A stretch of DNA of 64,000 bases from assembly GCA_964016885.1 (NCBI GenBank), contig OZ024741.1:132060001-132124000 (forward strand), in the 5' to 3' direction. The stretch comes from Eledone cirrhosa (Eukaryota). Made by a program: the position numbers and the translations under genes. Of the stretch, positions 14,801 to 64,000 are shown piece after piece. The notes beneath the pieces are model-generated. The model ran no database searches and was not told the DNA's origin. It saw only the letters and a list, made by a program, of their open reading frames with translations. The first letter of the stretch is position 1. Each line of letters starts with the position of its first letter.

Positions 14801-15015
<215 letters not shown>

Positions 15016-15235
15016 CGTTTCTGAATTTGTTTAGCAAGATTCTTTATCTGAAATCGTGTGTTGAAACCGATATTGTTATACTTTGGGAGGGTCATGTTGC
15101 CAATAAGAAACACACGCACCAGTTGCTTTCACTTCAATTTATTATATATTTATAAATTTATAAATTTACAAATTTACACACTTATAAATTTCTGGTTGGT
15201 TGGTTGGTTCCACAACCAGATAGTTGTTTATATAT

Positions 15236-15280
15236 AGTCATAGTCCTTTCGTCACACACTCTGTGACCTCTTCAGTGACT
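15236..15280 (-). ncRNA. Minimal hammerhead ribozyme in downstream pLTR
   Basis: AGUCA-CUGAAGA-G-GUCACA-GAGUG-UGUGAC-GAAA-GGAC-UA-UGACU. Confidence 0.88.
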
Positions 15281-15510
15281 GGGGATTCCTTTCTTTGTTT
15301 CTGTGCCTTTCCTTTCTTCTATCCTACGCCATTTTGTTTCTGTGTGTGTGTTGTGTGCTCAGTTTGCGTATGCGCCACATCCGGGTGTCTGTGTGTGTTT
15401 GTGTTCATTTATCTATTTGTTTATTTATTTATTTATTTATTGTTGGTTGGTTGTTTGTTCTATGTGTGTGTGTGTTTTCATTTTGTCCTGTGTGTGTTTT
15501 CATTCTGTCC

Positions 15511-18500
15511 TTAATTGTAAGTTGTGATGTTGCTGTTCCACTCATATTTTCTATTTAATTTTGGTTGTAATTCTTTTATGCTTACTGCCTCTGTAATTTG
15601 CCTAAACATTGCATCTTTTCTGTGTGTGGATTCTATTTTTATTTCTATGTTCTCTAATCTACCCCTGTGTTCTATCTTAGCATGTTGGTAGAGTACAGAT
15701 GATTCTTTATTATCTTGGAGGTCTCGCCAGTGTTCATTTATTCGTTCCCCTATACTACGAGCTGTCTCACCTATGTACACTATATTTTTGTTTCTACATT
15801 GTCCTTCAGTACATCTTATGCTATACACTACATTTCTAGTTTTACAGTTAATATGGGGGCTTATTTTACAGGTTATACATTTCTTATCTATACATGAAGG
15901 TCTTTGGAACGGGTATGTCTTGCTAATAAGTGTTTTTACGGAGGTACCTGGTCTTTCTACTATCTTAATATTGAGTTTATGTTTATTTAGGGCCCTTCTA
16001 AATTTGTAGGCTAGTTCGCCTCTAGGGGTTGTATTGATGAACATTACACTCTGGTATTTATTGCTATCATACCATGAGTTTATTCTATTGGCCTTGTTCC
16101 TAGTTCTTTCTATTCTATTCCAAAATTTGCTCCTATACAAGGGGCAGGTCCCATTTATGTCATTATTTACCATTTTTTCCCATTTGGTTCTGGCTCCTTT
16201 ATACACTCTGATTCTATCTCTCTGATTGTAGCCAGAGAACTGCATACGGTGGATGAAGTGTTGTATGTGTCTCTCTAGTTCTTCGGGGTTGCACATGCTG
16301 GACACATTTCTCATCACCCGTACCAAATCCGCAATCAGTATGTTGATTTTGGTATGGTCCGAAATGGCCGAGTTTCGGTGGATCAGATGTTTGGAAGTCA
16401 TGGGTTTGGCATAATGGGAATGGAGGATTTGTTTTTGGTTGTTAATGGTATCTAACCAGAGCTCTGTGTCTAGTACAGGTAATCGATGGTTGGGGTGTCT
16501 ACTTGGGTAGTCTATAGTAACTCTAATGCTCTGGTGGATGGAGTTTGCTATTTGCTGGCTTTCCATTGTGTTTTTCTCTAGTTCCTGACTGTTCTTTAGT
16601 GGGGGTGTCTTAACTACGATGTTTATATCATCTACGTAGCGGGAGTACATTATCAGGGTTAAGCTGTCTTCTAATTGTTCTTTAAGTTTTTGTTTAAGTC
16701 TACTGTCCCACCATACCATGAATAAGTTAGCTATGTCGCCTGCAATGCTAACACCAATGGCTGCTCCTTCCTCTTGGGCATATGTTTTACCATTAAATTT
16801 GAACATATGTTCCTTAAGGGTTAATTTTATGCTGGCCCCTACCGCATGTGCAATCATTTTCTTCAGTTCATCGTGGTTTTCGGGTGTCCGTATGGCTCTG
16901 GTCCACCCGTTCCATCTATCTGTGTGGGTTTTCTTGGCCATTGAGGTAATGGTAGGTGGCCTGCCTCTTGCTGGTCTTGTAGGGCACAGGTTGCTAAGGT
17001 CATAAGTGTCTAGGTAACTATTACTATGGGTAAGCTTAAGTAGAAGTCCCAGTTCACTGGTATCAATCCCACGGAACTCAACCTTGCTCTCGCTGATCAT
17101 TTCTACGCATTTCTCCACAGCAAAATCCACGTCAATAGATGGATACAGGGACACAACATCCATACTGCCTATTATGCAGTTTGTTAGGTCCCCAGATCGG
17201 TTACCCGCGCCGATTCTGCTGAGGAGGTCCTCCGTGCTGTCACATACATCTGGGGACATCTCAATGATGGGGCGTATGATCAGGGAGAGGAAGTAGGACA
17301 GTCTGTAGTTACTAGCAATGTTAGCCCCACAGACTGGCCGTGTTGGTGGTCCCGCGACAGGGTCCCAGTCCGTTTTATGGTCTTTTCGAAGCCCATACAA
17401 CGCCGGCACGTCATTGTTCCAGGCCTGGAAGTTATTGGCAGTCCTTTTGTTGGGCTGCATTATATTCGTCCACATCACCATATGGGCATTGAGGGCTTTT
17501 TCTCTATCCTCATGCTCCTGTGGTGTTACCTCTCTTGTGTTAGTGATGTGGGGTTGCATTGCCTGGATGTAGTTTGGCAGGCTGTCAACCGACATTCTGC
17601 CAGACTTGTCTGTTGGAAAACATGCTATCTCTCCATTACGCGAGCGCTGCATGAGCTTACGCAAGCCATTTGCAGATTTTTCTCCCAGTTGCTGGGCCTC
17701 TATTCTATTATGCTTCTTGCTATACTGTTCTATAATATTTCTAAGTTCGGATTTAGCTATACTAAATTGTGCTTCTGTTTGTTCATCGACCTGCGACGGC
17801 AACTGCGTGCGTTTGTTAAATGGCAAAGTCGTGGCGTGGACTCGTTGTAGGTCGAATGATTTATCGGAGGGATTATAAAACAGAGAGTTCCAGGCTGCTG
17901 CTTTATGTGTACTAGTGCTATTGTTATTGTTAGTTGTGTTGTTTCTATTTCTATTTCCACCAACAGCCTCATGGTTGTTTCTATGTCTCTCATAATTACT
18001 CCTGTCTCTTTCCACTGGCTCAATGTTGTTATCTACCCTATTTTGTGTGTCTGTGTGTTCGTCTTGGTTATTCTCTTTGTCCTTAGTCTCCCATCTCCTT
18101 TTCCTTTTAATCCTATTACTTTCCCTTATTTCTCTGATTTCTGTGCTACTGTCATTACTTGTTTTCTGTGTCTGTGTGTTTGTTAAGATTGTGGTGGTGG
18201 TGAGAGGCATTGAATGCGTGTGTGTTGTTGTTGTTGATGTGTGTTGTTGTTGATGTGTGTTGTTGTTGTCTCCGTGTGTGTTATCGTTGTTGTGTGTGTT
18301 GTTATTGTTGTTTGTGTCTGCGTGTCTGTTGTTGTTGTATCTGGGTATGTTGCTATTGTTGTTGTTGTTGATGTGTGTGTTGTTGTTATTGTTATTTGTG
18401 TCTGTGTGTCTGTTGTTGTTGGGATGTGTGTTGTATATGTGTGTGCGTATATTGTTGCTTTTGTTTTTGATGCTCCAGCGTAGTTTTGTAAATGATTTTT

Positions 18501-19221
18501 CTATTTCTGACAGACAACTAATCATATTTACCTTCTTGAATGTCGCAAATTTGGGCGGCAGACATAACACAGACATCTCATTATTATCTATTTCCGTGTT
18601 TCCATAAATGTTGGTATTTTCGTTGTTGAACTCTTCTGATAATGAGGTGTCGGCCATGTTGATACCGTCAATTTTGTCGGGATATCTATTGGTATACTCT
18701 ATAGTATCCCGATTTAGCTTTGCCTGTTTAAGCCACTTTAGTTTCCTGTTAAAGTGCTTATCACATTCTTGAGTAATGTACTGTTCTTCGGGGCGTATAA
18801 GGCTTATAAATATTAGTTTTTCTGTTGGTGTGGTGATTTTAGCTATTTCTTGTATTAGGTTACGCTTTTGTTTTTCTTGATGACTTAATTCTCTATAGAT
18901 CTTTTTTATGTTTAGAATTAAAGTTCGTTTTAGCCTATCTGCTTGTTTTTTGGTGAGTTGTAATCTTCTAACGTCGGTATTGATGGTGTTGGTGTAGATT
19001 CTAGAAGTGGCGCACAGCTTTATGAAGTGTAGTTGTCGAGATGTTATGGTTTTTCGTAGACAACAGAACATGGTGGTTTTCAGTATCTTGTTAGCCTGGC
19101 TAAGGCTTACGATATTTCGTTTCTGAATTTGTTTAGCAAGATTCTTTATCTGAAATCGTGTGTTGAAACCGATATTGTTATACTTTGGGAGAGTCATGTT
19201 GCCAATAAGAAACACACGCAC
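15511..19221 (-). CDS. PLE polyprotein: reverse transcriptase, Cys-rich linker, GIY-YIG endonuclease (first ATG at 19197)
   Basis: SMDVVSLYPSI, QEEGAAIGVSIAGDIANLFM, YSRYVDD, CIDKKCITC...C, NVVYSIRC...YIGETARSIGERINEH. 1236 codons without a stop. Confidence 0.95.
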   Translation of the reverse strand: MRVFLIGNMTLPKYNNIGFNTRFQIKNLAKQIQKRNIVSLSQANKILKTTMFCCLRKTITSRQLHFIKLCATSRIYTNTINTDVRRLQLTKKQADRLKRTLILNIKKIYRELSHQEKQKRNLIQEIAKITTPTEKLIFISLIRPEEQYITQECDKHFNRKLKWLKQAKLNRDTIEYTNRYPDKIDGINMADTSLSEEFNNENTNIYGNTEIDNNEMSVLCLPPKFATFKKVNMISCLSEIEKSFTKLRWSIKNKSNNIRTHIYNTHPNNNRHTDTNNNNNNTHINNNNNSNIPRYNNNRHADTNNNNNTHNNDNTHGDNNNTHQQQHTSTTTTHTHSMPLTTTTILTNTQTQKTSNDSSTEIREIRESNRIKRKRRWETKDKENNQDEHTDTQNRVDNNIEPVERDRSNYERHRNNHEAVGGNRNRNNTTNNNNSTSTHKAAAWNSLFYNPSDKSFDLQRVHATTLPFNKRTQLPSQVDEQTEAQFSIAKSELRNIIEQYSKKHNRIEAQQLGEKSANGLRKLMQRSRNGEIACFPTDKSGRMSVDSLPNYIQAMQPHITNTREVTPQEHEDREKALNAHMVMWTNIMQPNKRTANNFQAWNNDVPALYGLRKDHKTDWDPVAGPPTRPVCGANIASNYRLSYFLSLIIRPIIEMSPDVCDSTEDLLSRIGAGNRSGDLTNCIIGSMDVVSLYPSIDVDFAVEKCVEMISESKVEFRGIDTSELGLLLKLTHSNSYLDTYDLSNLCPTRPARGRPPTITSMAKKTHTDRWNGWTRAIRTPENHDELKKMIAHAVGASIKLTLKEHMFKFNGKTYAQEEGAAIGVSIAGDIANLFMVWWDSRLKQKLKEQLEDSLTLIMYSRYVDDINIVVKTPPLKNSQELEKNTMESQQIANSIHQSIRVTIDYPSRHPNHRLPVLDTELWLDTINNQKQILHSHYAKPMTSKHLIHRNSAISDHTKINILIADLVRVMRNVSSMCNPEELERHIQHFIHRMQFSGYNQRDRIRVYKGARTKWEKMVNNDINGTCPLYRSKFWNRIERTRNKANRINSWYDSNKYQSVMFINTTPRGELAYKFRRALNKHKLNIKIVERPGTSVKTLISKTYPFQRPSCIDKKCITCKISPHINCKTRNVVYSIRCTEGQCRNKNIVYIGETARSIGERINEHWRDLQDNKESSVLYQHAKIEHRGRLENIEIKIESTHRKDAMFRQITEAVSIKELQPKLNRKYEWNSNITTYN

Positions 19222-19337
19222 CAGTTGCTTTCACTTCAATTTATTATATATTTATAAATTTATAAATTTACAAATTTACAAACTTATAAATTTCTGGTTG
19301 GTTGGTTGGTTCCACAACCAGATAGTTGTTTATATAT

Positions 19338-19382
19338 AGTCATAGTCCTTTCGTCACACACTCTGTGACCTCTTCAGTGACT
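19338..19382 (-). ncRNA. Minimal hammerhead ribozyme in upstream pLTR
   Basis: Identical to 15236-15280. Confidence 0.88.
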
Positions 19383-19950
19383 GGGGATTCCTTTCTTTGT
19401 TTCTGTGCCTTTCCTTTCTTCTATCCTACGCCATTTTGTTTCTGTGTGTGTGTTGTGTGCTCAGTTTGCGTATGCGCCACATCCGGGTGTCTGTGTGTGT
19501 TTGTGTTCATTTATCTATTTGTTTATTTATTTATTTATTTGTTGTTGGTTGGTTGTTTGTTCTATGTGTGTGTGTGTTTTCATTTTGTCCTGTGTGTGTT
19601 TTCATTCTGTCCTTAATTGTAAGTTGTTTGTTCTATGTGTGTGTGTGTTTTCATTTTGTCCTGTGTGTGTTTTCATTTTGTCCTTAATTGTAAGTTGTGA
19701 TGTTGCTGTTCCACTCATATTTTCTATTTAATTTTGGTTGTAATTCTTTTATGCTTACTGCCTCTGTAATTTGCCTAAACATTGCATCTTTTCTGTGTGT
19801 GGATTCTATTTTTATTTCTATGTTCTCTAATCTACCCCTGTGTTCTATCTTAGCACAGATGATTCTTTATTATCTTGGAGGTCTCGCCAGTGTTCATTTA
19901 TTCGTTCCCCTATACTACGAGCTGTCTCACCTATGTACACTATATTTTTA

Positions 19951-20182
19951 TATAGAGTGTCCGTGCTGTTTGCTCTGATCTGAGATCAGATCAGAGCAAA
20001 CAGCACGGACACTCTATCTCAAAATTATTTTTGAAAAGCATTTAGAAATGCGCAACCGGTAAAAACTTAAAAACTTAAAACCACAACTGAATACTAACCC
20101 ATACAATCACTAATACTCTTTTATTCCTAATTAAACCATTTTTCAACTGTGAACAATTTGTCAGCATTTTCTATTCCGTTTA

Positions 20183-20185
<3 letters not shown>
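19951..20185 (+). mobile_element. Short PLE-like fold-back fragment with decayed U3-A8 hammerhead
   Basis: Palindrome 19952-20017. TTGAAAA-GCATTT-AG-AAATGC-GCAA-CCGG-TA at 20031-20061. Similar to 53745-53820. Confidence 0.65.
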
Positions 20186-20269
<84 letters not shown>

Positions 20270-20639
20270 GTATATATATATATACATATATAACTAGGAA
20301 TTGATCAACATATATATAAATATGAAAAATCACAGGAGATAATTTTTACAAGCGTGCAACCACGCATGGCTAGTAGGTAACAAATAAATAAAGTTAACTA
20401 GAACTTCAAAAATATATACCTTTTAATGATTAATCTTCCCTGTATATATTTCATTAAAGAAATATATTTCACCAATTAATCAGATGGTAAGTCACGGAAA
20501 GTGGATATTATTGGATTATCAACAAGGAAGAACAATATCAAGCGATCCATGTTTACACTTCGAGTCAAAATCTTAAACTGGCCGTTACCACGTGTTGATA
20601 TTACACATCACAGCGGCTTCGTTTCAGTGGCGTGAATAG

Positions 20640-21457
20640 GTATTCGACCACCATTATGGGTGCACGATCCAACACTGTGGTTCGCGCACATTGAAGCGCA
20701 GTTGGCATCGAACCGGATCGTTAGCGAGGCATCCCGTCTCACACATGTCATCGGTTCGATGTCTCCAGAGATTATGAATGAGGTTCGAGACCTCATTTTA
20801 GCACCACCCGGCTCTGTGTCATATGACACATTTAAAAGAACATTAGTTAAGTGGACGTCGGAGTCGCAGCAGAAGCGTTTGCACCAGCTCCTCATATCGG
20901 AGGAATTAGGAGATAAAAAGCCGACGCAACTCCTACGGCGAATGAAGCAGATTCTGGGAGAACATAAACTCCCGAATGAAATTTTCAAGCAACTATTCCT
21001 CCAGCGTTTGCCTTCTGCCACACAAGTTGTACTAGCATCCACCAGGGAGTCCACCACCATAGAACTCGCCGAGCTGGCAGATAAGATCATGGAGGTACCA
21101 CATCCGCACTCAACTTTAGCGAATGTGACGCCAGCCGTGCCTTCCACCAATCCTTTCCTTCAGCCCTCCAGTGCCACAGAGATGCCCGATCTACACCAGT
21201 TACTGGCACAGCAAGCAACACAGATACAGGCCTTGACGCAACAAATTAAGGCCTTGTCACTGGGCACCCCTGCCACGCGTCGGTCCAACAGTCGAACTCG
21301 CCGATTTGGAGGTCGCTCAAGAAGTCCGAGCGCATCTCGGGATTCACCAGAAATGTGTTGGTACCACCAAAGATTCGGGAGACGAGCGCAAAAGTGCAGC
21401 CATCCCTGTTCATTTGTTTCGAAAACGAATCAGGGAAACGACACAGCCAGAAACTGA
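20640..21457 (+). pseudogene. gag: Gypsy/Ty3 gag
   Basis: PPLWVHDPTLWFAHIEAQL, LGDKKPTQLLRRM, LFLQRLP, CWYHQRFGRRAQKCSHPC. Confidence 0.9.
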
Positions 21458-21495
21458 ATGCGACGGACTTTTCTGGCCCTCATAACCAAAGTCGC
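21433..21495 (+). promoter_or_regulatory. -1 ribosomal frameshift signal (G GGA AAC plus predicted pseudoknot)
   Basis: Heptamer 21433-39 in the gag frame, pol in the -1 frame. GCCAGAAA/TTTCTGGC stem; loop GCGAC pairs with GTCGC at 21491-95. Confidence 0.8.
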
Positions 21496-24400
21496 CTATT
21501 TTTCATTCAGGATCGCGTCACAGGCACGCGTTTCCTGGTCGACACCGGTGCTGAAGTCAGCATCATCCCGGTTTCCTGCGTTCCTGGAAAAAGGAGAGAG
21601 ACACCAGCCTGGCTCCAGGCGGTGAATCACTCACATATTCCGACCTACGGAGAACAGTCCCTGACACTAAATTTGGGACTTCGCCGCACTTTCCAGTGGG
21701 TATTCGTTGTGGCTAAGCTGCCGACCCCTATTTTAGGAGCTGATTTTCTTCAACACTTCTCGCTGCTAGTGGATCTGAAAAACTAACGACTCGTTGACAA
21801 CTCCACTGGTCTCGCTGTGCGCGGCATAGCCGCTAGGACAGCCACAGTCAGTCCAGTCATTTCACGATCGACAACAACAACCTGGCACAACCACATCATC
21901 AACAAATACCCAGACGTAGATCGACCACTCTTCAACGCTTGCCCTGTAAAACATGACGTCACACACCACATAAAAACACACGGACCACCTGTCGCTGCAC
22001 GACCTAGAAGGCTACCACCAGACCGGCTGAAGTCCGTCAAACAAGAATTTCAGCACATGCTGGATCTCGGCATCATACGTCGTCCAGCAGCAACTGGTCC
22101 TCACCCATACACTGTGTACCCAAGAAGTCGTCCAACGACTGGCGAATCTGTGACAACTACCGTGCACTGAACAACTGCACCGTTCCTGACTCTTATCCAG
22201 TGCCTCATCTACAGGACTTCTCTAGCTCGCTGCACGGGGCTCGCATATTTTCGAAGATCGATCTTGTGCGAGCTTACAATCAGATACCCGTTGAGCCCGC
22301 AGATATTCCAAAGACCGCCGTCACAACACCCTTTAGAATGTTCGAATTTCTGCGTATGCCTTTCGGTTTGCGAAATACAGCGCAGACATTCCAGCGATTC
22401 ATCGATACAGTCACCAGAGGTCTACATTTTGTATACGCATACATTGACGACTTACTGGTGGCCAGCAGCTCCGAGGAAGGACATGAGAAACACCTGGATA
22501 TCCTATTCACACGTTTGCGTGAATACGGAATTGTTATCAACCCCAGCAAATGTGAGTTCGGAGTTGCGTCCCTTCATTTTCTGGGACACATCATTGACAA
22601 AGATGGTATTCGCCCACTTAAGAAGAAAGTCAAATCCATCATTGACTTTCCACAACCTACATCTCTCCGCAAACTGCGAGAATTTCTTGGTCTGGTTAAC
22701 TTCTACAGAAGATTTATACCCCACTGTGCAGAGACAACCCAAACACTCACAGATTTGCTGCGGCAGCGTACAACCAAAATCGCAAACAGCAATCTCAGCG
22801 AAAAGGAATGTACCGCTTTCGCTGAGTTGAAGAAAATGTTGTCCGAGGCTACAATGCTGAGTTACCCCAAACTTGACGCCCCAATGTGTTTATTGACTGA
22901 TGCATCCGATTTAGGAGTTGGAGGTGTGCTTCAACAACTCTCTGGCGATATTTGGCGACCTGTATCTTTTTTCTCTAAGCGATTAAAACCCGCCGAAACT
23001 AAGTACAGCACATTCAGTCGTGAATTATTGGCAGCATACCTTGCTGTCAAGCATTTTCGACACATGCTAGAAGGTCGTGTGTTCTCTATATACACCGACC
23101 ACAAACCACTAGTGTACGCGTTCAACGCCAAGCCTGACCGACACTCACCCAGGGAGGTCCGACATCTGGACTTCATTTTTCAGTACACTACTGATATTCG
23201 GTACATTAAGGGTGCCACCAACTCAGCAGCTGATGCCCTATCACGCATGGAGCTTAACGCAAACCACACCACTGCCACTATCGACCTCCAGAAGATTGTA
23301 GCGGATCAACAGAATGACGAGGAACTGCTGCAACTCCGGAAATCATCCTTGAAATTGAAGGAATGCCCGCTGCCCTCTTCTTCGGGTTATATTTGGTGCG
23401 ATATCTCCACAGGCCACGAGCGCCCATACGTCCCCCGAAAACATCGACGCGACGTATTCTCGGCACTGCATTCTCTGGCATATCCTGGCGTCCGCGCCAC
23501 GCAGAAACTGATGGTTGCCCGCTTTGTGTGGCCCAATATCAACAAGGACACCCGCGAATGGGCTAGGAACTGTATCGCGTGCCAGAAGGCGAAAATTCAC
23601 CGGCACATTAAGCCCCGATCGGTTCTTTCGCAACACCTGATGCACGGTTCCAACATGTGCATATAGACATCGTTGGACCTTTGCCTCCTTCTCACAACTA
23701 CACTCATCTTCTCACCTGTGTCGACCGATTTTCTCGCTGGCCAGAAGCTTTTCCCTGACGGATATTACTGCGGAAACTGTCGCCAAAACGCTTGTGTTTC
23801 ACTGGGATTCGCGTTTCGGCACACCCACGACCATCACTACGGATAGAGGACGTCAGTTCGATTCGCACCTATTTACCAAGCTGAGTCGTCTCCTCGGGTG
23901 CAAACACATCCGTACAACAGCGTATCACCCTGCCGCTAACGGCATTGTAGAACGCTTCCACCGCCAGCTAAAAGCATCTATCAAGGCTTACGAAGACTCC
24001 ACTAACTGGTTCGAATATCTCCCACTCATTCTTCTTGGTATTCGTTCCACTGTTAAGGAGGGAGTCGGACATTCTCCGGCTGAAATGTTGTATGGCACCG
24101 TACTCACTCTACCCGGAATAATGATCGCTCCTGTTTCGCTACAAGAACTTCCAGAATCAACAAAATATGTGCACCGTTTACGGTCATCGATGTCGCATCT
24201 GTCTCCTTCATCCCCTAAACAACAACACGTTACTTCACACATACCAAAAGACATCGATACATGGACGCATGTTTTCGTTAGAAATGACGGTATTCCATCG
24301 CAACTTCGTCCGCCGTATTCCGGGCCCTATAAAGTGATACAGAAACGCCCTAAGTATTTCGTCCTCGACTTGAACGGGAAACGAAATACCGTCTCCATTG

Positions 24401-24570
24401 ATCGTTTTAAAAAAGCGTTCATAGAACAGGAATTGCCACCAGTACCCACCGTTTCTCCAGCAGACTCACCAACAACTTTGCCCGACACAAACACGACAAA
24501 TTCTGCACAACCCCGACACGCCAAATCTGGAAGAACAGTCCGATGGCCCACGCGATACGTACAAGTTTAT
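21433..24570 (+). pseudogene. pol: Gypsy/Ty3 pol (protease-RT-RNase H-integrase), disrupted
   Basis: [69 protein letters not shown]. Stop at 21784-6; frameshifts near 22085, 23612 and 23755. Confidence 0.93.
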
Positions 24571-24970
24571 CGGGTAAGTACAAATTATGCATCTGGTCGA
24601 CATTTCGACGAATTTGTACATTTCAACGAATCGGCCAATTTCTGTGGTCATGAACTATTGCACAAATCAATTAACTCTGTGCATCACCCACGTCAAAAGA
24701 ACAGACAAAAGAACATTTTTCCGTTTCTATGAAATGAACGAACTTTTAATCAACAAACTTTTCGTACGAACATTTTCAATTTTATGTAACATCACAGTGC
24801 ATTTTCCTGCATGTAAATTTTTTTTGCTTTGCATGTTTTCTTTCATTTCTCCTGTTTGTAAATGACTTTCATGTGTTTTTTGTTTTTACTGATTTTCTTC
24901 AACAACACACCTAGTCATACCTATCTTCATTTCACATGCACCTAGATCGTTCAAACTTAGCTTTCTCACT

Positions 24971-32665: not shown

Positions 32666-35600
32666 TTCTTTATTAGCCACAAGGGCGCACAAGAAAAGAG
32701 GACAATACAAAGACATGCCAAGGATTTTACATACAGTCGTGTAAAAAATATAAAATCAAACACTTACAACAATCGAAATCCCCAATAGGAGGGAGGCGCC
32801 ACAAATGGGTTGTTTAATACCCCGTCGATAGAACAACCCTCAACTCCAGGAGCGTGTTGTGCAGGTGCTCCTTTCTTCCTTTTGCTCTCTTCCTCAACCT
32901 ACAGGCTTATAAACAGAGAAGGCCCAATCACTCGGACCATTTTCGCTTCATTCACCCACCTTTCAGTAAATTTACTGGGATGCAGTGCCTTTCTCTCCAC
33001 CCTGATTCTCCTTCTAAAGTGATACTTAAAGAAGGGAATCAATTGTTGTCCGGAGAGAAAGGTATCTGTCCTCAGTCCTCTCAATCTCGTCCACCATATA
33101 ACTTCTTTCACCATAGCCACTGTACAGAGGAAAACTGCTTCTCTTTCGTTTTTGAAAGAGGCTGGCGGTTTGATCCTTACTATGGACTCGGCATTCAACT
33201 AAAGTTGTCCCATACGCGACAGCAGTTGCTCTGCATAGTTCCACAGGTCGGTTACGCTCGGGTAGTGTACAATTGCGTGCAGGACTGTTACAATGTCCTG
33301 CGCGCATCTTGGACACGTCCTCTTTGAAGGATCCCTGCTGGGGCGTCCGTGCCTGTAGATCTTGTCACGAACCGGTACAGCTCCTCGGTAGCACTGCCAG
33401 GCCAGGGACCTCTGGAAGTTGTCCATAGGTCTCGGGCGGAAAGTCCTACCAAACAGACTGGTGAGCTCATCGTCTTCGACGCCCAGAATCTCTCCGTACA
33501 ATCCCTCTATAGAATGTCGAAATGGAGTCTCCACTGATTGCAGCGCCCGCTTGCCAGAGGACTGTAAGCGCCTGAGCGCATTCAATGTGCCAGGCGCCCA
33601 TCGTTTTCGGTCTTTTCTTCACCCAGGACTGCAGTTCCGTCAGCGAGACGAGCTGTGGGAAAGCCTGTCTCACAAACGGTGCCCACACCGGTTGGGGGTC
33701 GGTGAGGAATACCTGGAGATGCCGCAGCCTCAGCGCATGTTTGCGCATCATCAGCCACTGCATGGAAGGGTGCTGACAGCAGACGGATCTCCTCACTAGC
33801 GGAGCCTGCTTCTTCCACAGAAACTGGAAGAGCATGCGTTCCATCTTGGCGAGGTGTTCACGAGGACAAGGCACGACAGTCAAGCGGTAGTAGATGACGG
33901 ACGCTATAAAAGTGTTCGCCACCTCCGCTCGACCTTTCAAGGACAGTTTGCACTCTGCCCACTTCTGGGTGAGTGCAAACACCTTGGCCGTGACCTCGTT
34001 CCAGTTTTTCTCCACCTGGAGGTCTGGACCGAACCAGACCCCGAGCAATTTCACCGGTTCGTCCGTCAAAAGTCCAACGACGCTGTTGGACGTCATCGGT
34101 TTGCCTCTACACGTACCGAGTTGCAAACCGACAGACTTTTCCGGGTTTAGTTTTGCTCCCGTCAGCGTTTCGTATTATTTCAGTAAGTTGCCGATCACCC
34201 CGATTTCCGAGGTGCTCAACACCGTTACCGTCACGTCGTCGGCATAAGCCGACGCCGCTTTGCGCAGTCACGGTTCTAGAGGGATGCCCTGCAACAGCTC
34301 CAATTTCCGCAGTAGTGGCTCTAGAGTCAATACATACAGAATGGAGGAGAGAGGGCACTCCTGTCGAATGGAACGCGTGATTGCGAACGGCTCCGATAGG
34401 TAGCCGTTCGCAATCACGCGTTCCATTCGATTACGAACGGCTCCTATAGGTAGCCGTTCACCTTGACCCTCGAGCAGATGCCGGTGTGCATCGCCTCGAT
34501 CCATCCTCTGAACACGGGACCGAAACCGGCCGCCTTGAGAACCGCTTCCAAGTATCGATGGTCGACCCTATCGAATGCCTTAGACTGATCCAAGTTGATC
34601 AGAGCCCCACCGAAGCCGGGTTTACTACCCACCCTCTCTATGATGTATCGCATGAGGTGGAGGTTGTCGTGTATGGACCTGGTCGGGATTGCACACGTTT
34701 GCGCTTTCCCTACCAGGTTCTCGACGACAAGCGCCAACCTCGTCGCTAGCACCTTGGCTAAAATCTCAACTCTGTGTTGAGCAGAGTTATGGGCTTGAAG
34801 TTGTTAATTTCGTCCCCTTTGTTCTCGTCTTTCCTGATCAGCATTACTACGCCCTTGCCTGCAGAACTGAGAATTCTCCCGTTCTGCTGTCAATTGCAGT
34901 AGACGGCTTTAAGGACGCCAGAGAACAAGTCCGGCATGCCTATGTAAAATTCGTAGGGTAGACCATCTAGACCGGGTTGCGTTTCCCGCAACGGCCCAGA
35001 GCGTCCCGTATCTCAGTGTCCGTGATCGGTCTTTCGCAGAACTCGGCGTCCGTGTTCGAGAGACGCGGCAGGCCGTCGAGGTATGAACTAAAGTCCATTG
35101 CCCCGTGTAAGCTTTACATGCCGGCAACGACACGTTCAGCTTCCAGTATCCGGGTCCCTGTCTATGTATTCTATCACGGTTGACTAAGCAGACGACTAAC
35201 TTGTGATCTGAATAGGCAACCATGTGCATTCGTGGACATCTTACCATCTCCTTGTCCCTTTCTCTAAAGAAGAACCTATCTAAATACGATCTAGATGTCC
35301 CACTGCGGTTTGCCCACGTCCACTGTGGTGCAGTCGGGAAATCCAGTCGATACCTATCGGCCAGTTGGAATTGGCCGATTAAATATTTGAGGCTGTTGCA
35401 CCCCGCTCTACTGGGACATGCTCCCACATAGTCCCATCGTGCATCTAGGATACCATTCCAGTCCCCCACTAAAAGTAAGGAACGAGACGTTCCCAGAAAA
35501 GACTGTAGCCGCTTAAAGATGTCTGGCCGTGATTGCGATTGCCCGATCGCGGCATAAACGGCCACCACTCTGAAGGCTCCACCTCCGATACTGTTCACGT

Positions 35601-38032
35601 CTAGGACTACCAGTCTACCCTCCGAGTCCAAGTGTACTTGCTGTACTCCGACGTCCTGGTTCTTCCGAAACATGACAGCCACTCCACCTCCACCTCCTGG
35701 CTGACAGAGAGATGCGTAGATCTCAAAGTCGTCGAAGATGGGGGTTAGTTGCTGCCTGTTGTGGATCCTGGACTCGGTGATGGCTATCACATCCATACTG
35801 TGTGACCTAAGGTCGTTTAAAAGTTGGCCCTGTTTCCAGGGCATCGCTAGTCCACGCACATTCACGGTTCCAACTCGTAAACTAGCCATGTTGGTGAAGA
35901 AAAGTTGGAGAAAAAGGATGAAAGGTGCACTTACCTTTTCGTTTCCTGGAGATCGGGTTGTTCAATCTCCATTTGGGTGCTGGATGGGGTGTTGGGTGGG
36001 GTGGGGAAACATTTTAACAGGACGCGGTTGATGGGTTTGTGGCAGGGGTTGCCCACGTCCTGTGAAAATTTATTTTTTAGGTCATTATAGGTTTCCATAG
36101 AAACCTTTATAAGTTTAAGGTGTGGAGACGATTCTGCCTTGACGAAAGTTTTTCCCTCCGTCTCCACCTTGGGGTTTTGGGAGATGACCTCCATCAAACT
36201 CTTGTTGTTTGTGTTGATGTATGCGTATTGTTGTTTGTGTTTTTGTTGTGTTGTTTTAGTTTGTTGTTCGTCCGGGAGTTTTCTTTTTATGGTGGGTGCT
36301 TGTGTTTGGGGTGGTGTTGGTGCTGGTTTTGCTGATAGGGGATGTTTGACTGTGGTGTTGTTTGTGTTGTTGTTTGTGTCTGTGGTTGTGTGTTGGTGTT
36401 GGTGATTGGAGTTTTGGGGGGTTTGTGGTATCTCGTTTTTTGATTTTTAGATTTCCGCGGTTCTTCCTCTTCTTCACTTAAAGAAGGAGAAGCAGCTTCA
36501 TCCGTCGATGAATAATCATCGTCAGGTGTGTGGGGTAAGGGTATGTTGTGTGGTGGTGGTGTTTCGGTGTGTGTGTTTGTGGTAGTGTTTGATGGAGTGG
36601 GATGGAGTGGGGCTGTGTTCTTCAGGGGTGTTGTCTCTGTTTTTTCTGTTGTTGTTGGTTGAGTGTCTGTTTGTTTTGGTGTGGTTGCTCGTTTCGTCTG
36701 TCGTTGTACTTGTGGTGGTGGTGGTTGTTTTGGTGTTGGTGTTGGCGTTTTTGTTTATGATGTTGTTGTTGTGTGTTTGTGGACAAGAGGCTTTTAGGTG
36801 TGCTGTGTTACCACAGCGAAAGCAATGAAATTTTCGTCCTTCTACCGAAATGTTTATTTTGTTGTTATTATCGATAACGACTCTTTCGGGTATTTTGGAG
36901 ATTCTCTCCGGTTTCATTTGCAACAGAATCTCCAAATCTGTGCCCGCCCACCTTTGTCGAATAGATTTTCGTATCGAAAGTATCATATCAGTTTCTGGCT
37001 CTACGAAGCCAGCCAAGATCCACCAGATGTTAATGTTTGGAGGTATGTTTTTTTTTGTTTTTTTTTGTGTCCTTTTTCCCATGTATGTAGGGAAAAAGGT
37101 GTATGCTTTTGACACCATTGGTGTTACAGAGTTTTTTTAGGCGAGTGCCTCGCTTTTAAACAGTACGGAAACACATCCGTACTGTTTTCCTCGCTGGAGA
37201 AAATCGACATTTGCTAGAATTTCCTTGAAAGTATCTTCTATATCTGCTTGGTTAACAAATGTCGGCTTTCTTGTGGAATTTGAAACAGTCCTAAAGGTGA
37301 CTGATCTGCGGATTGTGTCTTCCTTTATTTCAAGGGGTGAGTTAATTCTAAACCCACCTCTTTCTTCGAAAGTTACACCTTTTCTCCCTTGCTGGAGCAT
37401 ATCTCTTGCGTTGGAGATATCAAGATTTATAAAATCTTGTTTTTTGTTCACTGTTTCAGCGAAAGACATTTTCTTTTTTTGTGTGGTGTTGCTGTTGTTG
37501 TTGTTGTTGTTATCGTTGTTGGAAATCTCAGTTCCTTGTTGAGGTGAAACATTATGTGTATATGTATCTGTAGAGTTGTTGATGTCTTTTTCATGTGTAT
37601 GTATGTTAATGGGTTTAATTCCTGTGTTTTCCTGTGTTATTGTTATTTTTCTCCGCTTCGACGGTAGAAATTTAAGAAATGTTCAAGTGTTAATATATTT
37701 TTCTCTTTGTTGACACTTGTATCTATGGCGACGTCCATAGTAGCAGAAGCAGATATAACGTTAATATCTGCCTCTTTCTCTCTCTTTTCTCTATTAACAT
37801 TCTCCAGCGTTCTTGTGTTGCTCAAATTATTTAGTTTGTAAAATCTGATATTTTAAAACAAATTTTTAAAATAAAATTTTCGCCCCTACAGGCGCAAAAA
37901 ATGGGATTACCACGCAGCTGACAATTCAGCTTGGGAGTTAATCTACAAAGTGTTATGTTTTTTAAAACAATTAGTTCGGTTTTTTGCATAGAAATTAACA
38001 AAAAAGCTTACCGGCGATGTTCCACACGTCAG
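32665..38032 (-). mobile_element. Tx1-clade (L1 group) LINE A, near full length, decayed
   Basis: ORF1 with CFRCGNTAHLKASC. ORF2 MASLRVGTVNVRGL (35889), GDWN, SDH, DQSKAFDRVDH, YADD. AATAAA then (TCTA)n. Internal deletion at about 35105 relative to B. Confidence 0.9.
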
Positions 38033-38061
38033 ACAGAAAGAGAGATAGATAGATAGATATG

Positions 38062-41000
38062 TTTCTTTATTAGCCACAGGGGCACAAAAGAAGGGGACAA
38101 ATACAAAGGGGGAAGTTTACATACAATAAAAACGTGTAAAATGTTATCACAAATGCAATTAAAAAAGTTAGTCGATTTTCCCCAATAAGGGGAGACAGTT
38201 TAATGGGTAACACATACCCCCGAAAAAATGTTAAACCCTCATCTCCAGGAGTACGAAGAGTTTGTACTCCTTTCCTCTCCTCCTTCTTTTCCTCAACCAA
38301 CAGGCTGATATAGAGAGAAGGCCCATTCACTCGGGCCATTCTCGCCACTTTCATCCACCTTTTATAAAACTTGCTGGGGTACAGCACCTCTCTCTCCATC
38401 CTGATTCTTCTTCCAAAGTGGTATTTGAAAAAAAGAATCAGTTGTTGGCCGGAGAGAAAGGTGTCTGACCTCAGCTCTTTCAACCTTGTCCACTATACAA
38501 CCTCTTTCGCCATAGCTATCACACAAAGGAAAACCGCCTTTCCTTCGTTTTTGAAGGAGGGTGGCGGTTTGATAATGACAATGGACTCGGTGGTCAACCA
38601 GATTGGTCCCACCCGCGACAATAGTCGTTCTACATAGCCCCACAGGTCGGTGACGCCCGGACAGTGTATGAATGCGTGCGCGACGGTTTCTTCGTCTCGC
38701 ACGCACCTCGGACAGAACTTTTTTGCAGGGTCCCTTCCCGGGCGCCCATGTCTGTAGAGCTTGTCTCGAACTGGTAGAGATCCTCGGTAGCACTGCCAGG
38801 CCAGGGACTTTTGGAAGTTTTCCATCGGTCCCGGGCGGAAGGTCCTACCGAACAGACTGGCCAGTTCGTCTTCCTCTACGCCTAGAGTTTCCCCGAGCAC
38901 GTCGTCGCACTTACTGCGGATCAACCCTCTATAGAATGACGAAGTGGAGTCTCCACTGATCGCCGGGTCCGCCTGCCAGAGGACTCTGAGCGCCTGAGCA
39001 CATTAGATGTGCCAGTCGCCCATTTTCCTCGGTCTTTGCTAGACCCAGGACTGCAGCTCGGTCAGCGAGACGAGTCGGTTGTCCGGTGAGCAATACGTAG
39101 AGATGCTGCAGCCTGAGCGTGTGTTAGCGCATCGTCAGCCACGGCATCCCCAGCGCTCCGTTGGGACGGTGTTGGCAGCAGATGGATCTTCTCACCAAAG
39201 GAGCCCGCCTCTTCCAAAGGAATTCGAAGAGCGCGCTCCATTTTGGCGAGCGTTTTGGCTGGACAAGGCACGACGGTCAAGCGGTAGTAGATGGCGGACG
39301 CTATAAAAGTGTTCTCCACATCCGCTCGAACTTTCAAGGATAGTTTGCACTCGGCCCACTTCTGGGTGAGTGCAAACACATTGGCCGACACCTCCTTCCA
39401 GTTCTTCTCCACCTGGAGGTCCGTACCAAACCAGACCCCGAGCAGCTTTACTGGTCCAGCGTCCGACGACGCCATCGGAAGGCATCGATTTGCCTCTCCA
39501 CGATCCGAGTTGCAAACCGATGGACTTGTCCCGGTTCAGCTTCACCCCTGTGAACCTTTCGTATTCCTTCAGTAAGGTGCCGACTTCCTCGATTTGCGAG
39601 GCGCTCGACACCATAACTGTCACGTCGTCGGCGTAGGCCGACGCCGCTTTCCGCAGTCCCGGTTCCAGAGGGATGCCCTGCAATAGCTCCAACTTCCGCA
39701 GTACTGGCTCGATAGTCAGTACGTACAGAAGGGAGGATAGAGGGCATCCCTGTCGAATGGATCGCGTGATATGAAACGGCTCCGAGAGGTAGCCGTTCAC
39801 CTTAACCCTTGAGCAGAAGTTGCTGTTGTGCATTGCAGCAATCCAGCCGCTGAACACGGGCCCGAAGCCTCCCGCCTCGAGCACCGCATCCAGGTAACGA
39901 TGGTCAACCCTATCGAAAGCCTTAGACTGATCCAAGTTGATCAGGGCACCACCGAAGCCGGGTTTACACCCCACCCTCTCTATGATGTATCGCATGAGGT
40001 GGAGGTTGTCGTGTATGGACCTGGTCGGGATTTCGCATGTCTGCGCTTCTCTCACCAGGTTCTCGACGACAGGCGCCAGCCTCTTTGCCAACACCTTGGC
40101 CAAAATCTGTAACTCTGTGTGTAGCAGAGTTATGGGCCGGATGTTGCCTATGTCATCCCCATTATTCTCGTCCTTCCTGACTAGTGTGACTACGCCTCCG
40201 GTCACAGAACTGGGAATTCTAACGTTCTGTTGCCAGTTGCAGTAGACCGCTTCCAGGAGACCGGAGAATAAGTCCGGCATTGCTACGTAAAATTCGTAGG
40301 GTAGACCGTCGAGACCTGGAGATTTGCGTTTGCCGCATTGGCTCAGCGCGTCCCCTATCTCAGCGGCTGAAATCGGCTTTTCGCAGAACTTTGCCTCGCT
40401 GTCCGAGAGTCGCGGTAGGCCGTCGAGGTATGGACCGAAATCCATAGCCCCTCCCTCCGCTGAAAGGCCGCACACATCTGCTTCGGCTCACGTATCACGC
40501 GTCCGTTTTGGTCCTTCAAAGACCGAATCGTGGACTTGTTGCCACTTTTTGCCTCCGTCACTCGGGCCCAGCTAACAGCTTTGGCTCCATCGTTTCCCAG
40601 AGCACGTAGTTTGCTTCTGACAACGCAGCCCTCATGCTTTGCGTCGAAGAACTGGTCCAAGGCCGTTCTCGTTGCTAGCACGCTGGCTACTTTGCCACTT
40701 CTTATTGCCTCTTCTACTTTATCTACCATTTCTTTCTCGGTTCTATTTCTATCTAACGCTAATTCTTTACTAAAACCTAACGAGTCTAATCTAACTGCCC
40801 TCTTGAGAGAGTACCACCATCTGTTGTTGACAATGGCCCCTGTTAAGTGCTGTTTAACTAAAGCGCTAATCCGTCTACTGTAGACTTTGCATGTCGGTAA
40901 CGACAAGTTCAGCTTCCAGTAGCCGGTTCCTTGTCTATGGGTTCTATCAAGGCTGGCCATGCAGGTCACTAGTTTGTGATCTGAATAGGCAACCATGAAC

Positions 41001-43870
41001 ATTTGTGGACAGCTTAACATGTCCCTATCCTTATTTCTAACTAGAACCCTATCTAGGTACGATCTAGATGTTCCGCTACGATTAGTCCACGTCCACAGTG
41101 GCACGGTCGGAAAATCTAGTCGATATCTATCGGCCAGGTCAAATCGGCCGATTAACTGTTTGAGGCTGTTACACCCTCCCCCCCCCTTTATCGGGACATG
41201 CTCCCACATAGTCCCAACGTGCATCTAGGATTCCATTCCAGTTCCCCACTAAAAGCAAGGAGCGGGACGTTCCCAGAAAAGTCTCTAGACGTTTGAAGAA
41301 GTCTGGCCGCGGTGTCCCAGATGGGGCATATGCGGCCACCAGCCTGAAGGCTCCACCTTCACTACCGTCAACGTCTAGGACCACCAGTTGACCCTCCGGG
41401 TCCAGATGTACCGTCTGTGTTACTAGACCCAGGTGTTTCCGCAGCAAAACGGCAACCCCGCCCCCACCCCCCGGCCGACAGAGAGATGCGTAGATCTCAA
41501 AGTCATCGAAGATGGGGGCCAGCTGTCGCTGGCTGTGGATCCTAGACTCGCAAATGGCTACTACATCCATACTGTGCGACCTGAGGTCGTTTAAGAGTTT
41601 GCCCTGTTTCCAGGGCATCCCCAGGCCGCGTACATTCACACATCCAACTCTTATATTGGCCATGTTGGTTCTGAAAAGTTAAAAGAGGAGAAGAAAACAC
41701 TCACCTCTTCGTCTCCCGGGATCAGGCCGCACGGTTTCCATGGGGGTGTTAGAGGGGTTGTCTGGGTGGATGGTGGTTTCCGGTGGGGTGGGGACGGAGA
41801 TGTTGGTGGGGTGGGGGTGTCTAGGGTGAGGGTGGGGAAACTTTTTAAAAGGACGCGGTTAATGGGTTTAACACAAGGATTACCCACGTCCTTAGGAAAG
41901 TTTTCCTTTAAAGACTTATAGGTGTCCGTAGGGACCCTAATCATCTTTAAATTAGGTTTATCTACACAGTTCGAAAAAGTTTTCCCTTCGGTTTTCACCA
42001 AAGGGTCGTTGGAGATGACCTCCATTAAAGTTTTGTTTTTACTGTTTATGTATGTGTAATGTTCTTGTTGTGTTGCGGTGGTTTTTGTCTGTTGTTCTTG
42101 TGGGAGCTTTCGTTTTGTTGTAGGTGTTTGTGTTTGGAGTGATGGCGTGGTTTTGTTTACAGGATGGAGGGGGGGGGGGTTGTTTGTAATGTTTGTGTTG
42201 TTTGTGTTGGTGATTGTATGTTTGTAGTGATGTTTGTTGTTTTTTTGTTCTTGTGGTGTCTTTTCTTCTTTCTTTTCGAACGGAGAGGCTCTCCCTCATC
42301 ATCACTTGGTGATGATGTGGGGGCCTGGTCCGTTGTGGTGTCTGTGTTATTTGGAAGGGATATGTTTTGGGGAGCTGTTGTGTTTGTGGGTGTTTTTGCA
42401 GTGGTTTTAGGTGGAGTGGGGTTGGGTGGGACTGTGCTTGCAGGTTGGTTTGTTGTTCTTGTTTTGGTTGTGTTTGCGTGTTGTTGTTGTTGTTATTGTT
42501 GTTGTTGTAGCGGTGGTGGTGGTGGTGGTGGTGGTGGTGGTGGTGGTGGTGGTGGTGGTGGTGGTGGTGGTGATGGTGGCGGTGGTTGTGTTGTTGTTTT
42601 GGGTGTTGGCAGTAGTGCCTCTTTTTTTTTTTAGTTAACTGAGGACAGTAAGACTTTAGGTGACCACTGCTTAAACAGTGGTAACATGAAGGCCGCCTAC
42701 TCTCAACAGAAATGTTTATGTGTGAAATTCCATCCAGAGGCACACGTTGGGGTATTTTAGCTATCCGTTCTGGCCTCATTTGGACCAGAACTTCTATGCT
42801 TGTACCGTTGAATGTGCCTCTGGAGGACTTTCCCACCGAAATGATGGTGTCTTCGTCGAAATCGATGAAGCTAGTTAGAATCAACCAGACGTTTACATTT
42901 GGTGCAATGTTCGAAATTTTTATTTTTTGTGTTCTTTTTCCCATATATGTGGGGAAAAGGGTGTAAAAGGGGGGGACACAATCGGCGATACAGAATATTT
43001 TTGTGCTGTCAATTGGTCTTTCAACAACACCGAAATGTTTCCAAAAAGTTTCCCTTTTTGGATGAAGGCAATATCCTTCATGGAATTCTTCAGAACCAGT
43101 TCAATATCGTTTTGGGATAATTGAAGTGGTTTTTTCGACACATTTGAAACCGTCCTAAAAATTACTGTTTTTAGAACAGTTTCTCTGCGTAACTGTTGAG
43201 GAGAAGTGATGCTGAAAGCACCACTCTCACCAAAAGTTACGTACTGTTTTGCATCGCTTAACATTTCCCTAGCATTGGAAATGTCAAGGTATGTAAACAG
43301 TTCCGTCTTTTGGACGGTTTGAGCAAAGGAAATCTTTTCCTTGTTCGTGGAGTTGTTCGTGTTGCTGTTGTTGTTGGTGGTGGTGTTGTTATCATTGTTG
43401 CTGTTGTTGTTCTTGTTGTCATTATTGTTGTTGTTGTTGTTGTTGTTCTGGTTGGTGTTGTTTATATTTTGCATGTTATTGGTGTTTGTGTTAGTGTTGA
43501 TGTTACAATCAACGTCCGACATCGTGTTTTCAAAACTGACGACATTTTCGATGTCTTTCAATGAGGTGGTGAGAGGAGGTGACTGCGAGCTTAACACTCT
43601 TACCGCCTCTCCACCACTTCTAGTTATGAACGCAGCGTTCATGACTGAATGCAATGTTTGTTTACACTTATTTTTTCACCGGCGAAATTTTTTTCCCAAA
43701 CGAAAATTTCACCCCAGGGAGGGGTGAAGATGACTTGACCCACCGTCTGAAAGTCCACACGTGGGGTCAAGCTATAAAATAGTAATAAATTTAACAATAA
43801 ATTTTTGATTTCTTACTTAGAAAATCAACAAAAACTTACCAGCGAACTGGCACAGTGCAAGTTACACCAG
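38062..43870 (-). mobile_element. Tx1-clade LINE B, near full length, decayed
   Basis: ORF1 CYHCLSSGHLKSYC. ORF2 MANIRVGCVNVRGL (41663), KSPGLDGLP, RQGCPLS, AYADD, CPRC..H...C. Same 3' end as A. The 5' end position is approximate. Confidence 0.9.
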
Positions 43871-53460: not shown

Positions 53461-53518
<58 letters not shown>

Positions 53519-53524
53519 GTGAGG

Positions 53525-53557
<33 letters not shown>

Positions 53558-53668
53558 TGAAAAATAACCGAGGTGTCCTACACGAGTGAAAGTATAAAGA
53601 AAATGAGATGAAATTGAAAATGCTACTGGAGTCTTATTTTTTTTTTAAATATATATATTTATTTGGTT

Positions 53669-53706
53669 CCTCTACCGGTTTCGCAGTTCTTCTGCTTTTC
53701 AAAAGG
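53669..53706 (-). ncRNA. Minimal hammerhead with U3-A8 core (mirror copy)
   Basis: CCUU-UUGAAAA-GCAG-AAGAA-CUGC-GAAA-CCGG-UA-GAGG. Confidence 0.75.
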
Positions 53707-53781
53707 TGAGTTGAGATGGAGGGTCTGTGGTTTTTCTCACATCTGATGTGAGAAAAACCACAGACCCTCCATCTCAACTCA

Positions 53782-53819
53782 CCTTTTGAAAAGCAGAAGA
53801 ACTGCGAAACCGGTAAAGG
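53782..53819 (+). ncRNA. Minimal hammerhead with U3-A8 core
   Basis: CCUU-UUGAAAA-GCAG-AAGAA-CUGC-GAAA-CCGG-UA-AAGG. Confidence 0.78.
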
Positions 53820-53888
53820 AACCAAATAAATATATATATTTTTAAAAAAAACAAGACTCCAGTTGCATTTTCGATTTCATCTCTTTTT

Positions 53889-53958
<70 letters not shown>

Positions 53959-63268: not shown

Positions 63269-63613
63269 ATAATAATTATAAAGACCAAAATCCGAAGAGG
63301 GCTTGATAAGGATTATATATATATATGTGTGAGTGTGTTCTGTTATTAATTCTGGCAATATTACACAAATATGACCCTCCCCAAGTATAACAATATATAT
63401 ATATATATATATGAAAATAAGGAGAAAAAGACGATTATTTGGAAGAAAAAAAAATTCTTTTTCCTTTTATTTTTTCTCTCTTTTTTCTGGGTTAGAAAAT
63501 GTTTAAAACAAAATATTTTAATTTGTGTGAAGGGTTAAGGTATTAGTTAACTTATTTATTAATTAACAATGGCATTTATTTATTTATTTAGTTATTTATA
63601 TATTTAATAGTTG

Positions 63614-63656
63614 TCTATTACCGGTTTCAGCATTTTATGCATTATCAAAGGGGGGA
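63614..63656 (-). ncRNA. Decayed hammerhead with U3-A8 core
   Basis: UUGAUAA-U-GCAU-AAA-AUGC-U-GAAA-CCGG-UA; stem I degraded. Confidence 0.5.
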
Positions 63657-64000
63657 ATTTGTATTGGTATAAAATGTAGGAGATAATGTGATGTTGAGCA
63701 TGTTAAGGAAATGGGAAAGAAAGAATAATATTATTTACAAACAAGGTTCTTGAAGTAAAACAAAAAAAAAAACAAAAGGGGGTGATGTGGAACATGATAA
63801 GGTAATGGGAAAGAAGGAATAATATTATTACAGGTATAGTTCTTGAGGATAAGCAGTTCAAAAAGTGTTATTATGGCAAGAGCGCTTGGTTTGTCCATGA
63901 TGGAGGCAAATGGTAGTCTCGGGTTGGATATGATTTCCCTTTTTAGAGAGTTACTATGTAGGGGGAGGTAATTCAGAGTGGTCAGGTAAGGGAGAGAGAA

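Follow-up and report, generated by a model that had tools for sequence, protein, structure and literature searches.

Hammerhead motifs and Penelope-like insertions in the window

The window analyzed here is a 64-kb stretch of the Eledone cirrhosa genome (contig OZ024741.1, positions 132,060,001 to 132,124,000) that holds 3′ ends and fragments of several Penelope-like element (PLE) families among other retroelements (Table 1). A search of the window with a descriptor for hammerhead motifs bearing U3-A8 in place of the canonical C3-G8 core pair returned four matches, whereas 100 shuffles averaged 0.01 matches and never gave more than 1. Two of the four lie in the arms of a palindrome near 53.6 kb, where both strands confirmed the reading CCUU-UUGAAAA-GCAG-aagaa-CUGC-GAAA-CCGG-UA-(A/G)AGG given in a first-pass annotation of this DNA, and the related motifs that it had placed at 20031(+) and 63648(-) were recovered by the same descriptor. 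Its description of these motifs as otherwise canonical held for the 53.7-kb motif only and failed for those at 20031 and 63648.

Table 1. Features of the 64-kb window
Feature	Position	Strand	Details
Whole family A insertion	53506..53895		two 5′-truncated 3′ ends, head to head, junction ~53745, pointing outward; (TA)n on both sides; left arm, long end (68-nt tail); right arm, short end
Family A hammerhead motif	53782..53819	+	stem I 53782-85/53816-19; core U3-A9 53786-92; stem II 53793-805 (GCAG/CUGC), then GAAA-CCGG-U-A; G12-A15.1 53806-09; palindrome ACCGGU 53809-14; predicted cut after A53815 (A17)
Second family A hammerhead motif	53669..53706	-	inverted arm; core at 53702; U·G wobble at 2.1-1.1; predicted cut after position 53673
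Family E 3′ end	19985..20192	+	208 nt, 100% identical to an intact copy (L212)
Inverted arm beside family E 3′ end	19944-19983		40 nt
Family E motif	20028..20064	+	U3-A8 core at 20031; stem II GCAUU/AAUGC; G12-C13-A14, with C13 at 20053; palindrome 20055-60; H17 at 20061; stem I of 3 bp, all U-A
Family B 3′ fragment	63393..63931	-	motif 63648-63619, UUGAUAA core; U·U mismatch at stem II base; stem I of 1 bp
Comparison PLE, canonical C3-G8	15010..19943	-	1239-aa open frame 19230-15511; hammerheads at 19377 and 15275
Further copy of that C3-G8 motif	26980	-	descriptor scan
Further copy of that C3-G8 motif	27095	+	descriptor scan
Further copy of that C3-G8 motif	51590	+	descriptor scan
Inverted pair of another PLE family	5896-10089		1.9 kb; GIY-YIG-like frame 8843-9322; no hammerhead by descriptor
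Degraded LTR retrotransposon	20636-24732		reverse transcriptase, RNase H and integrase zinc-binding domains
Two tandem degraded LINE-like elements	33467-43675	-	endonuclease-like and reverse transcriptase frames

The two arms of the palindrome belong to one insertion event and do not count as separate cases. They are 94.6 to 100% identical to an intact natural copy of family A (L098), in which the two ends occur as loose ends at positions 1169 and 1237; these element ends lie 79 and 147 nt beyond the predicted cut, i.e., 68 nt apart. An RNA reading through the palindrome folds computationally as one hairpin of -234 kcal/mol, and since its two motifs sit on opposite strands within that hairpin, the locus offers no dimer in cis; the palindrome is probably silent. 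We lean toward regarding the window copies as by-products of insertion, a view that forms part of the joint explanation developed below. Similarly, the A13 change at 20053, first taken for an individual mutation, is a trait fixed in family E. Rfam covariance models run over the window gave 87 matches at E ≤ 1, none of them to a hammerhead family and with hairpin-type chance matches only, a scan that is insensitive here, as it also missed all five canonical C3-G8 motifs present in this stretch.

At 15010-20192, a (TA)n-flanked block brings together two 3′ ends, the left one from the canonical C3-G8 family and the right one from family E, which meet at 19943/19944. This block may be a tail-out insertion from RNAs of two families or may stem from two successive insertions; a count of such two-family junctions is confounded by cross-matching between families A and E.

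The U3-A8 core and its parent elements

We counted core variants across this one genome (3.0 Gb) with four patterns sharing the same spacer and GAAACCGGT tail, with reversed patterns as controls; a run labeled as another organism, 99% identical, was not taken as a second species. The U3-A8 double change returned 23,458 matches (control, 50), the U3-G8 single mutant 188 (control, 28), the C3-A8 single mutant 195 (control, 27), and the C3-G8 core with the same tail 110 (control, 154). Single mutants are found at less than 1% of the U3-A8 level, and most of those among the matches listed carry the stem II of U3-A8 families. An exact 29-mer from the palindrome occurs 11,625 times, and the UUGAUAA class accounts for 2,720 matches. 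The comparison with single mutants had been suggested at the outset as a way to expose AT-biased decay of a CUGANGA family; with singles far rarer than doubles, such decay is ruled out, and the counts, together with the parent elements described below, bear out the proposal of a Penelope-like lineage with a fixed U3-A8 core. Here the variant has not supplanted the canonical core, of which a separate family has 20,415 C3-G8 motifs. The 45 matches of a metagenome scan had no related protein in their vicinity, and we take them as chance.

The patterns also brought up other repeats. Most of the C3-G8 matches listed (110 in total) form a small separate family (L031-L050). It combines the C3-G8 core with ACCGGU, a possible stem I is set off from C3 by two additional bases, and no protein was found within 1.5 kb. 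Among the 100 C3-A8 matches listed, one at G000:C1:91259722 and ~11 more belong to another repeat family with a purine/pyrimidine stem and an ACCGGU tail, which may represent another odd core, one base shorter. At 348.86-348.95 Mb (G000:C1; L054-L057), a tandem array of ~9.6-kb units has in each unit a cysteine-rich frame, presumably IL-17-like, and a family A copy with a U3C change has been duplicated together with the unit.

Identification of the parent PLE, which the first-pass annotation had called for, was achieved. Upstream of the longer motif copies lies an open frame encoding reverse transcriptase (RT) and C-terminal GIY-YIG domains; RVT_1 and GIY-YIG were each detected at E values of about 1e-6 in families A and E, RVT_1 in family A falling below the curated cut-off. 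Family A is young, with a 775-aa RT/GIY-YIG frame in a unit of ~4.7 kb, and 746 relatives were counted. Among 30 GIY-YIG loci examined from 150 scored, with 1.5 kb downstream inspected, 25 have the motif 1.0 to 1.4 kb after the stop codon; this protein-led sample used the same motif pattern, yet it shows the motif at a fixed distance. Intact 775-aa frames are accompanied by the motif in 11 of 12 cases (the remaining one has none within the flanking sequence inspected), as are all 18 intact 784-aa frames of family E, each with C13. Tandem units measure 4679 to 4840 nt and hold one motif each, and insertions take the form of tandem repeats and of inverted 5′-truncated copies with a one-sided tail. 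No parents were found near the motif copies examined of families C, G, and H.

The family A protein carries a CX4CxxC linker and a CCHH motif, and its copies lie in (TA)n. These traits fit elements of the Neptune type as described in PMC8557442, although the linker also occurs in Nematis and does not separate the two, and our tree comprised unnamed proteins. Two other candidates were discarded: a non-LTR retrozyme, as the units are 4.7 to 4.8 kb and protein-coding instead of short and noncoding, and the intact element at 15.5-19.2 kb of the window, which has its own C3-G8 motif and is 26 to 30% identical to the U3-A8 families. The RT frame of families A and E is overlapped in the -1 phase by a first frame of 400 to 455 aa (L098:2392-2398; L212:6627-6633), and the conserved U-UUU-UUA slippery site at the overlap suggests programmed ribosomal frameshifting.

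The U3-A8 pair is fixed in four families (A, B, D, and E) whose adjacent proteins are 54 to 58% identical pairwise, except for B and E at 74%. A quick tree built from 43 of 120 listed relatives groups these proteins in a single 13-row clade (SH-aLRT 99), which also contains eight unnamed proteins, their motifs out of view, scattered among the five U3-A8 rows. The core UUGA(A/U)AA and ACCGGU are kept in all families; the search patterns themselves contained the tail with ACCGGU, which accounts for part of its conservation, and they covered only families with this loop 3. Stem II differs in its letters yet is paired, at 4 to 6 bp in families A, B, C, D, and E, with 2 to 3 bp in G and a U·U mismatch at its base in family B, the 63648(-) copy included. 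A13 is present in all copies of A (53/53), B (19/19), C (9/9), and D (3/3), G12, A14, and A15.1-U16.1 are kept in the same four families, and a single one of 160 family-assigned copies departs from A, C, or U at H17. Stem I is less regular, with 3 to 4 bp in 45 of 53 A copies, three U-A pairs in 64 of 71 E copies, and 0 to 2 bp in all 31 copies of B, C, and D. In one copy (L251/L252), the hammerhead between the stem I strands seems to have been deleted, as though skipped in copying.

Family E departs further from the canonical core. A pattern with non-A at position 13 returned 12,903 genome matches (control, 87), almost all of which, among the 100 listed, are family E with C13, and E-type motifs with A13 number 41 against ~12,900 with G12-C13-A14. 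Thirty of those 41 were examined and, apart from one family A copy, are scattered over both E subfamilies, like back-mutations; the spread speaks against an A13-bearing ancestral subfamily, which we reject. Private decay is likewise ruled out as the origin of A13C by the ~12,900 copies and by the intact frames. Family E is recent in appearance, about 90 of 150 scored protein matches being 100% identical, and because A, D, and B, the sister of E, carry A13, the quick tree implies that C13 is derived. Between the two E subfamilies, the ~43-nt motif block differs by a loop indel alone while ~15 flanking positions differ (40 copies, over half of them picked for A13, the sole reason that position 13 varies in the sample); constraint on the block has therefore persisted after C13 arose. 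Since family E lacks the G12-A13-A14 of type I minimal hammerheads, we file its motif as a hammerhead-derived variant and not as a hammerhead member.

Could the motif be without function, an AT-drifted dead hammerhead carried along by a handful of master copies? Both core changes are toward A/T in an AT-rich genome, and copy counts mirror master copies and so are by themselves no sign of selection. However, core and palindrome are identical across families this far apart in protein while the letters of stem II turn over, and the E block is unchanged where its flanks differ. We consider this reading highly improbable and largely refuted.

Predicted cleavage and insertions that begin at the cut

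Our preferred reading, held at a probability of roughly 60%, is that a Neptune-type clade with fixed U3-A8 carries in its terminal repeat a type I minimal hammerhead sequence, likely to cut weakly as a dimer after A17 and probably needing the element protein. This reading draws on the position of the motif, its same state in intact copies, its occurrence once per tandem unit, and the retention of core and palindrome across families; we also find it somewhat more likely than not that family A cuts its RNA. Two motifs, from successive tandem units or from two RNAs, would pair through the ACCGGU palindrome into a 6-bp stem III (duplex computed at -8.3 kcal/mol), and the dimer would cut slowly or weakly after A17, releasing the unit RNA, probably with the assistance of the element protein. 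Most insertions would be copied from uncut RNA, given that the element ends lie well beyond the cut, and a minority (~1%) from cut RNA, which would begin at the cut. The dimer, slow cutting, protein help, and uncut template are modeled on work reported in PMC4209133 and PMC11167929.

Several observations weigh against cutting, among them a stem I of 0 to 3 bp in four families, the spread of family E to its present copy number with C13, and computed folds that do not favor the hammerhead. The hammerhead-compatible fold of the family A monomer is at -4.7 kcal/mol against -6.4 for its lowest fold, that of family E at +0.6 against -3.5, and for the family A dimer a longer duplex is favored, one that consumes the 3′ strand of stem I. 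An alternative is that the motif, of hammerhead descent, is now a noncutting RNA element, a dimerization palindrome with a hairpin bound by the element protein, with U3-A8, C13, and the loss of stem I marking a stepwise relaxation of catalysis. Fixation of C13 in a young family with intact frames is in line with this alternative, as are the stem I of 0 to 2 bp in B, C, and D and the second 6-nt palindrome that C13 creates, computed to be as stable as ACCGGU. Insertion in vitro without a need for cutting (PMC11167929) and the proliferation of Naiad elements without canonical hammerheads (PMC8557442) also agree with it. Yet conservation falls on the catalytic letters (U4, G5, A6, A9, G12, A14, A15.1-U16.1, and an H17 that is not G, with the single exception given above), the 3-8 pair has changed as a pair, and 5′ ends of family A are in excess at the cut. 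We regard a noncutting role as doubtful.

We asked where insertions begin by counting, per position, matches to the sequence downstream of a boundary that are preceded by a nonfamily base. The cut and position -1 were classified by script and the other family A positions by eye on 7 to 12 bases of context, with A-runs blurring the position. At the cut, 134 family A matches have a non-A before the cut product, and 21 of 30 examined are true 5′ ends (a few borderline, one locus counted twice), which extrapolates to ~94. By eye, true ends amount to ~16 to 19 of 72 matches at -16, ~18 of 114 at -6, ~49 of 63 at +1, ~60 of 81 at +2 (~27 of them from one fold-back hot spot), and 30 to 36 of 69 at +4. 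At -1 there are 77 matches, 17 of 30 being true ends by script, about the level expected from cut-site ends preceded by a chance A. Family A 5′ ends at the cut thus stand at ~5 times the upstream rate and 1.6 to 3 times the downstream rate, and involve ~1% of copies. The canonical family points in the same direction in small numbers (7 of 18 versus 0 of 2 true ends). For family E, 14 of 30 examined at the cut (64 matches) compare with ~13 of 88 at -16 and 12 of 57 at +7, where the +7 control omits T-ended junctions.

The excess in family A is suggestive, a hint that cleavage in vivo may have left a trace in the genome; our literature search returned no earlier genomic 5′-end trace of Penelope hammerhead cutting. 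A 5′-end profile of this kind would serve as a DNA-only test for cutting in vivo. Alternatively, the hammerhead reading may be right while the excess arises from microhomology with TA-rich flanks, from nicking at TA steps, or from RT leaving its template at the folded motif. Many junctions do end in T or (TA)n, and when family A is restricted by eye to C/G-ended junctions the excess shrinks, to 24 to 29 at the cut, 13 to 17 at +1, and 9 at +2 (for family E, 10 at the cut and 6 at +7). On the other hand, boundaries that likewise start with AA (-16 and +4) yield fewer ends, and -1, the position expected for a stall ahead of stem III, shows no excess. Nested insertion as a source of cut-site ends is excluded, the upstream half being missing within 1.5 kb in 29 of 30 cut-site loci. 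Such other sources remain a serious contender, to which we give a little less than even odds.

If position 13 behaves here as elsewhere, A13C in family E would likely slow cutting rather than abolish it: changes at A13 cost 10- to 100-fold, less than changes at C3, G5, G8, G12, or A14, according to PMC4075628. The compound reading that family E is a working natural hammerhead with three core changes (U3, A8, and C13), active via dimers and the element protein, and that cut-site insertions record Penelope hammerhead cleavage in vivo, seems to us unlikely as a whole. Either outcome would be informative. Should C13 cut, A13 would not be invariant in nature, and search descriptors would be overlooking large families; should it not cut, an autonomous element would be thriving without cutting while conserving the motif, which would imply a second, noncatalytic role. 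If the compound reading is true, the A13 and C13 sister families amount to a ready natural experiment.

Comparison with known hammerheads and Penelope-like elements

The hammerhead class and the U3-A8 swap are known, and the swap by itself is ordinary; the novelty that the first-pass annotation implied for it does not stand. Natural U3-A8 hammerheads were reported in 2011 and stated to be active in vitro (PMC3088659, Perreault et al. 2011), and ~1,300 U3-A8 motifs with UUGAAAA/UUGAUAA cores were described in Penelope elements of Schistosoma mansoni in 2014 (PMC4209133). The 2011 paper lists both the U3-A8 covariation and a U10.1·U11.1 mismatch such as that of family B here; A13C is not among the variants named in its core-variant section, to which its figures S6 and S7 may add. 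We found no literature report of a natural hammerhead with A13C or another A13 substitution, although the 2011 figure data and studies of small PLE variants may list one. Nor did we find U3-A8 described as fixed across a Neptune-type clade, a novelty that work on small Penelope hammerhead dimers may reduce. The available excerpts of bioRxiv 10.64898/2026.07.22.740005, PMC7151607, and PMC11014351 contain nothing on U3-A8 or C13 variants. In a deep mutational scan of another hammerhead, strong rescue was reported only for a G3-C8 swap (PMC9901934).

Penelope hammerheads are reported to cut poorly in vitro and to be dispensable for insertion in one reconstituted system (PMC4209133, PMC11167929). 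In PMC4209133, dimers cut weakly; the schistosome motif tested there is family Sm1, and the passages on these assays describe no test of a U3-A8 motif. For the Poseidon_Ac hammerhead of Anolis, PMC11167929 reports that cutting needs the 3-8 pair and is protein-assisted, that it is not needed for insertion in vitro, and that no RNA reads ended at the cut. Like the Eledone elements, Poseidon_Ac has a terminal-repeat hammerhead, and its two downstream RT starts give a tail, matching the two ends found here; unlike them, it has a canonical C3-G8 core, overlaps the start codon with its hammerhead, belongs to the Penelope/Poseidon clade, and has been tested in vitro (PMC11167929). Neptune-clade elements as described by Craig et al. 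2021 (PMC8557442) share with the Eledone families the order of RT then GIY-YIG, a CX2-5CxxC linker, a CCHH motif, (TA)n targets, tandem and inverted truncated insertions, and a one-sided tail. The hammerhead descriptors given in PMC8557442 use a CUGANGA core, and U3-A8 motifs would therefore escape them. In the present genome, young families with intact frames add up to tens of thousands of copies and cover three states (canonical, 20,415; U3-A8, 23,458; U3-A8-C13, ~12,900).

The closest parallel is Cercyon of Schistosoma mansoni. If Cercyon belongs to the Penelope/Poseidon clade, the U3-A8 swap would have arisen twice. As described by Cervera and De la Pena 2014 (PMC4209133), Cercyon resembles the Eledone families in its UUGAAAA/UUGAUAA cores, terminal-repeat location, short stem I, palindromic stem III, high copy number, and opposite-strand pairs. 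It differs in that the loop-3 palindrome of the Eledone families is ACCGGU, that family A is without the extra base after A9, that the Eledone elements have a Neptune/Nematis Zn-finger linker and reach ~36,000 copies versus ~1,300, and that one of their families adds C13 to the shared U3-A8 core.
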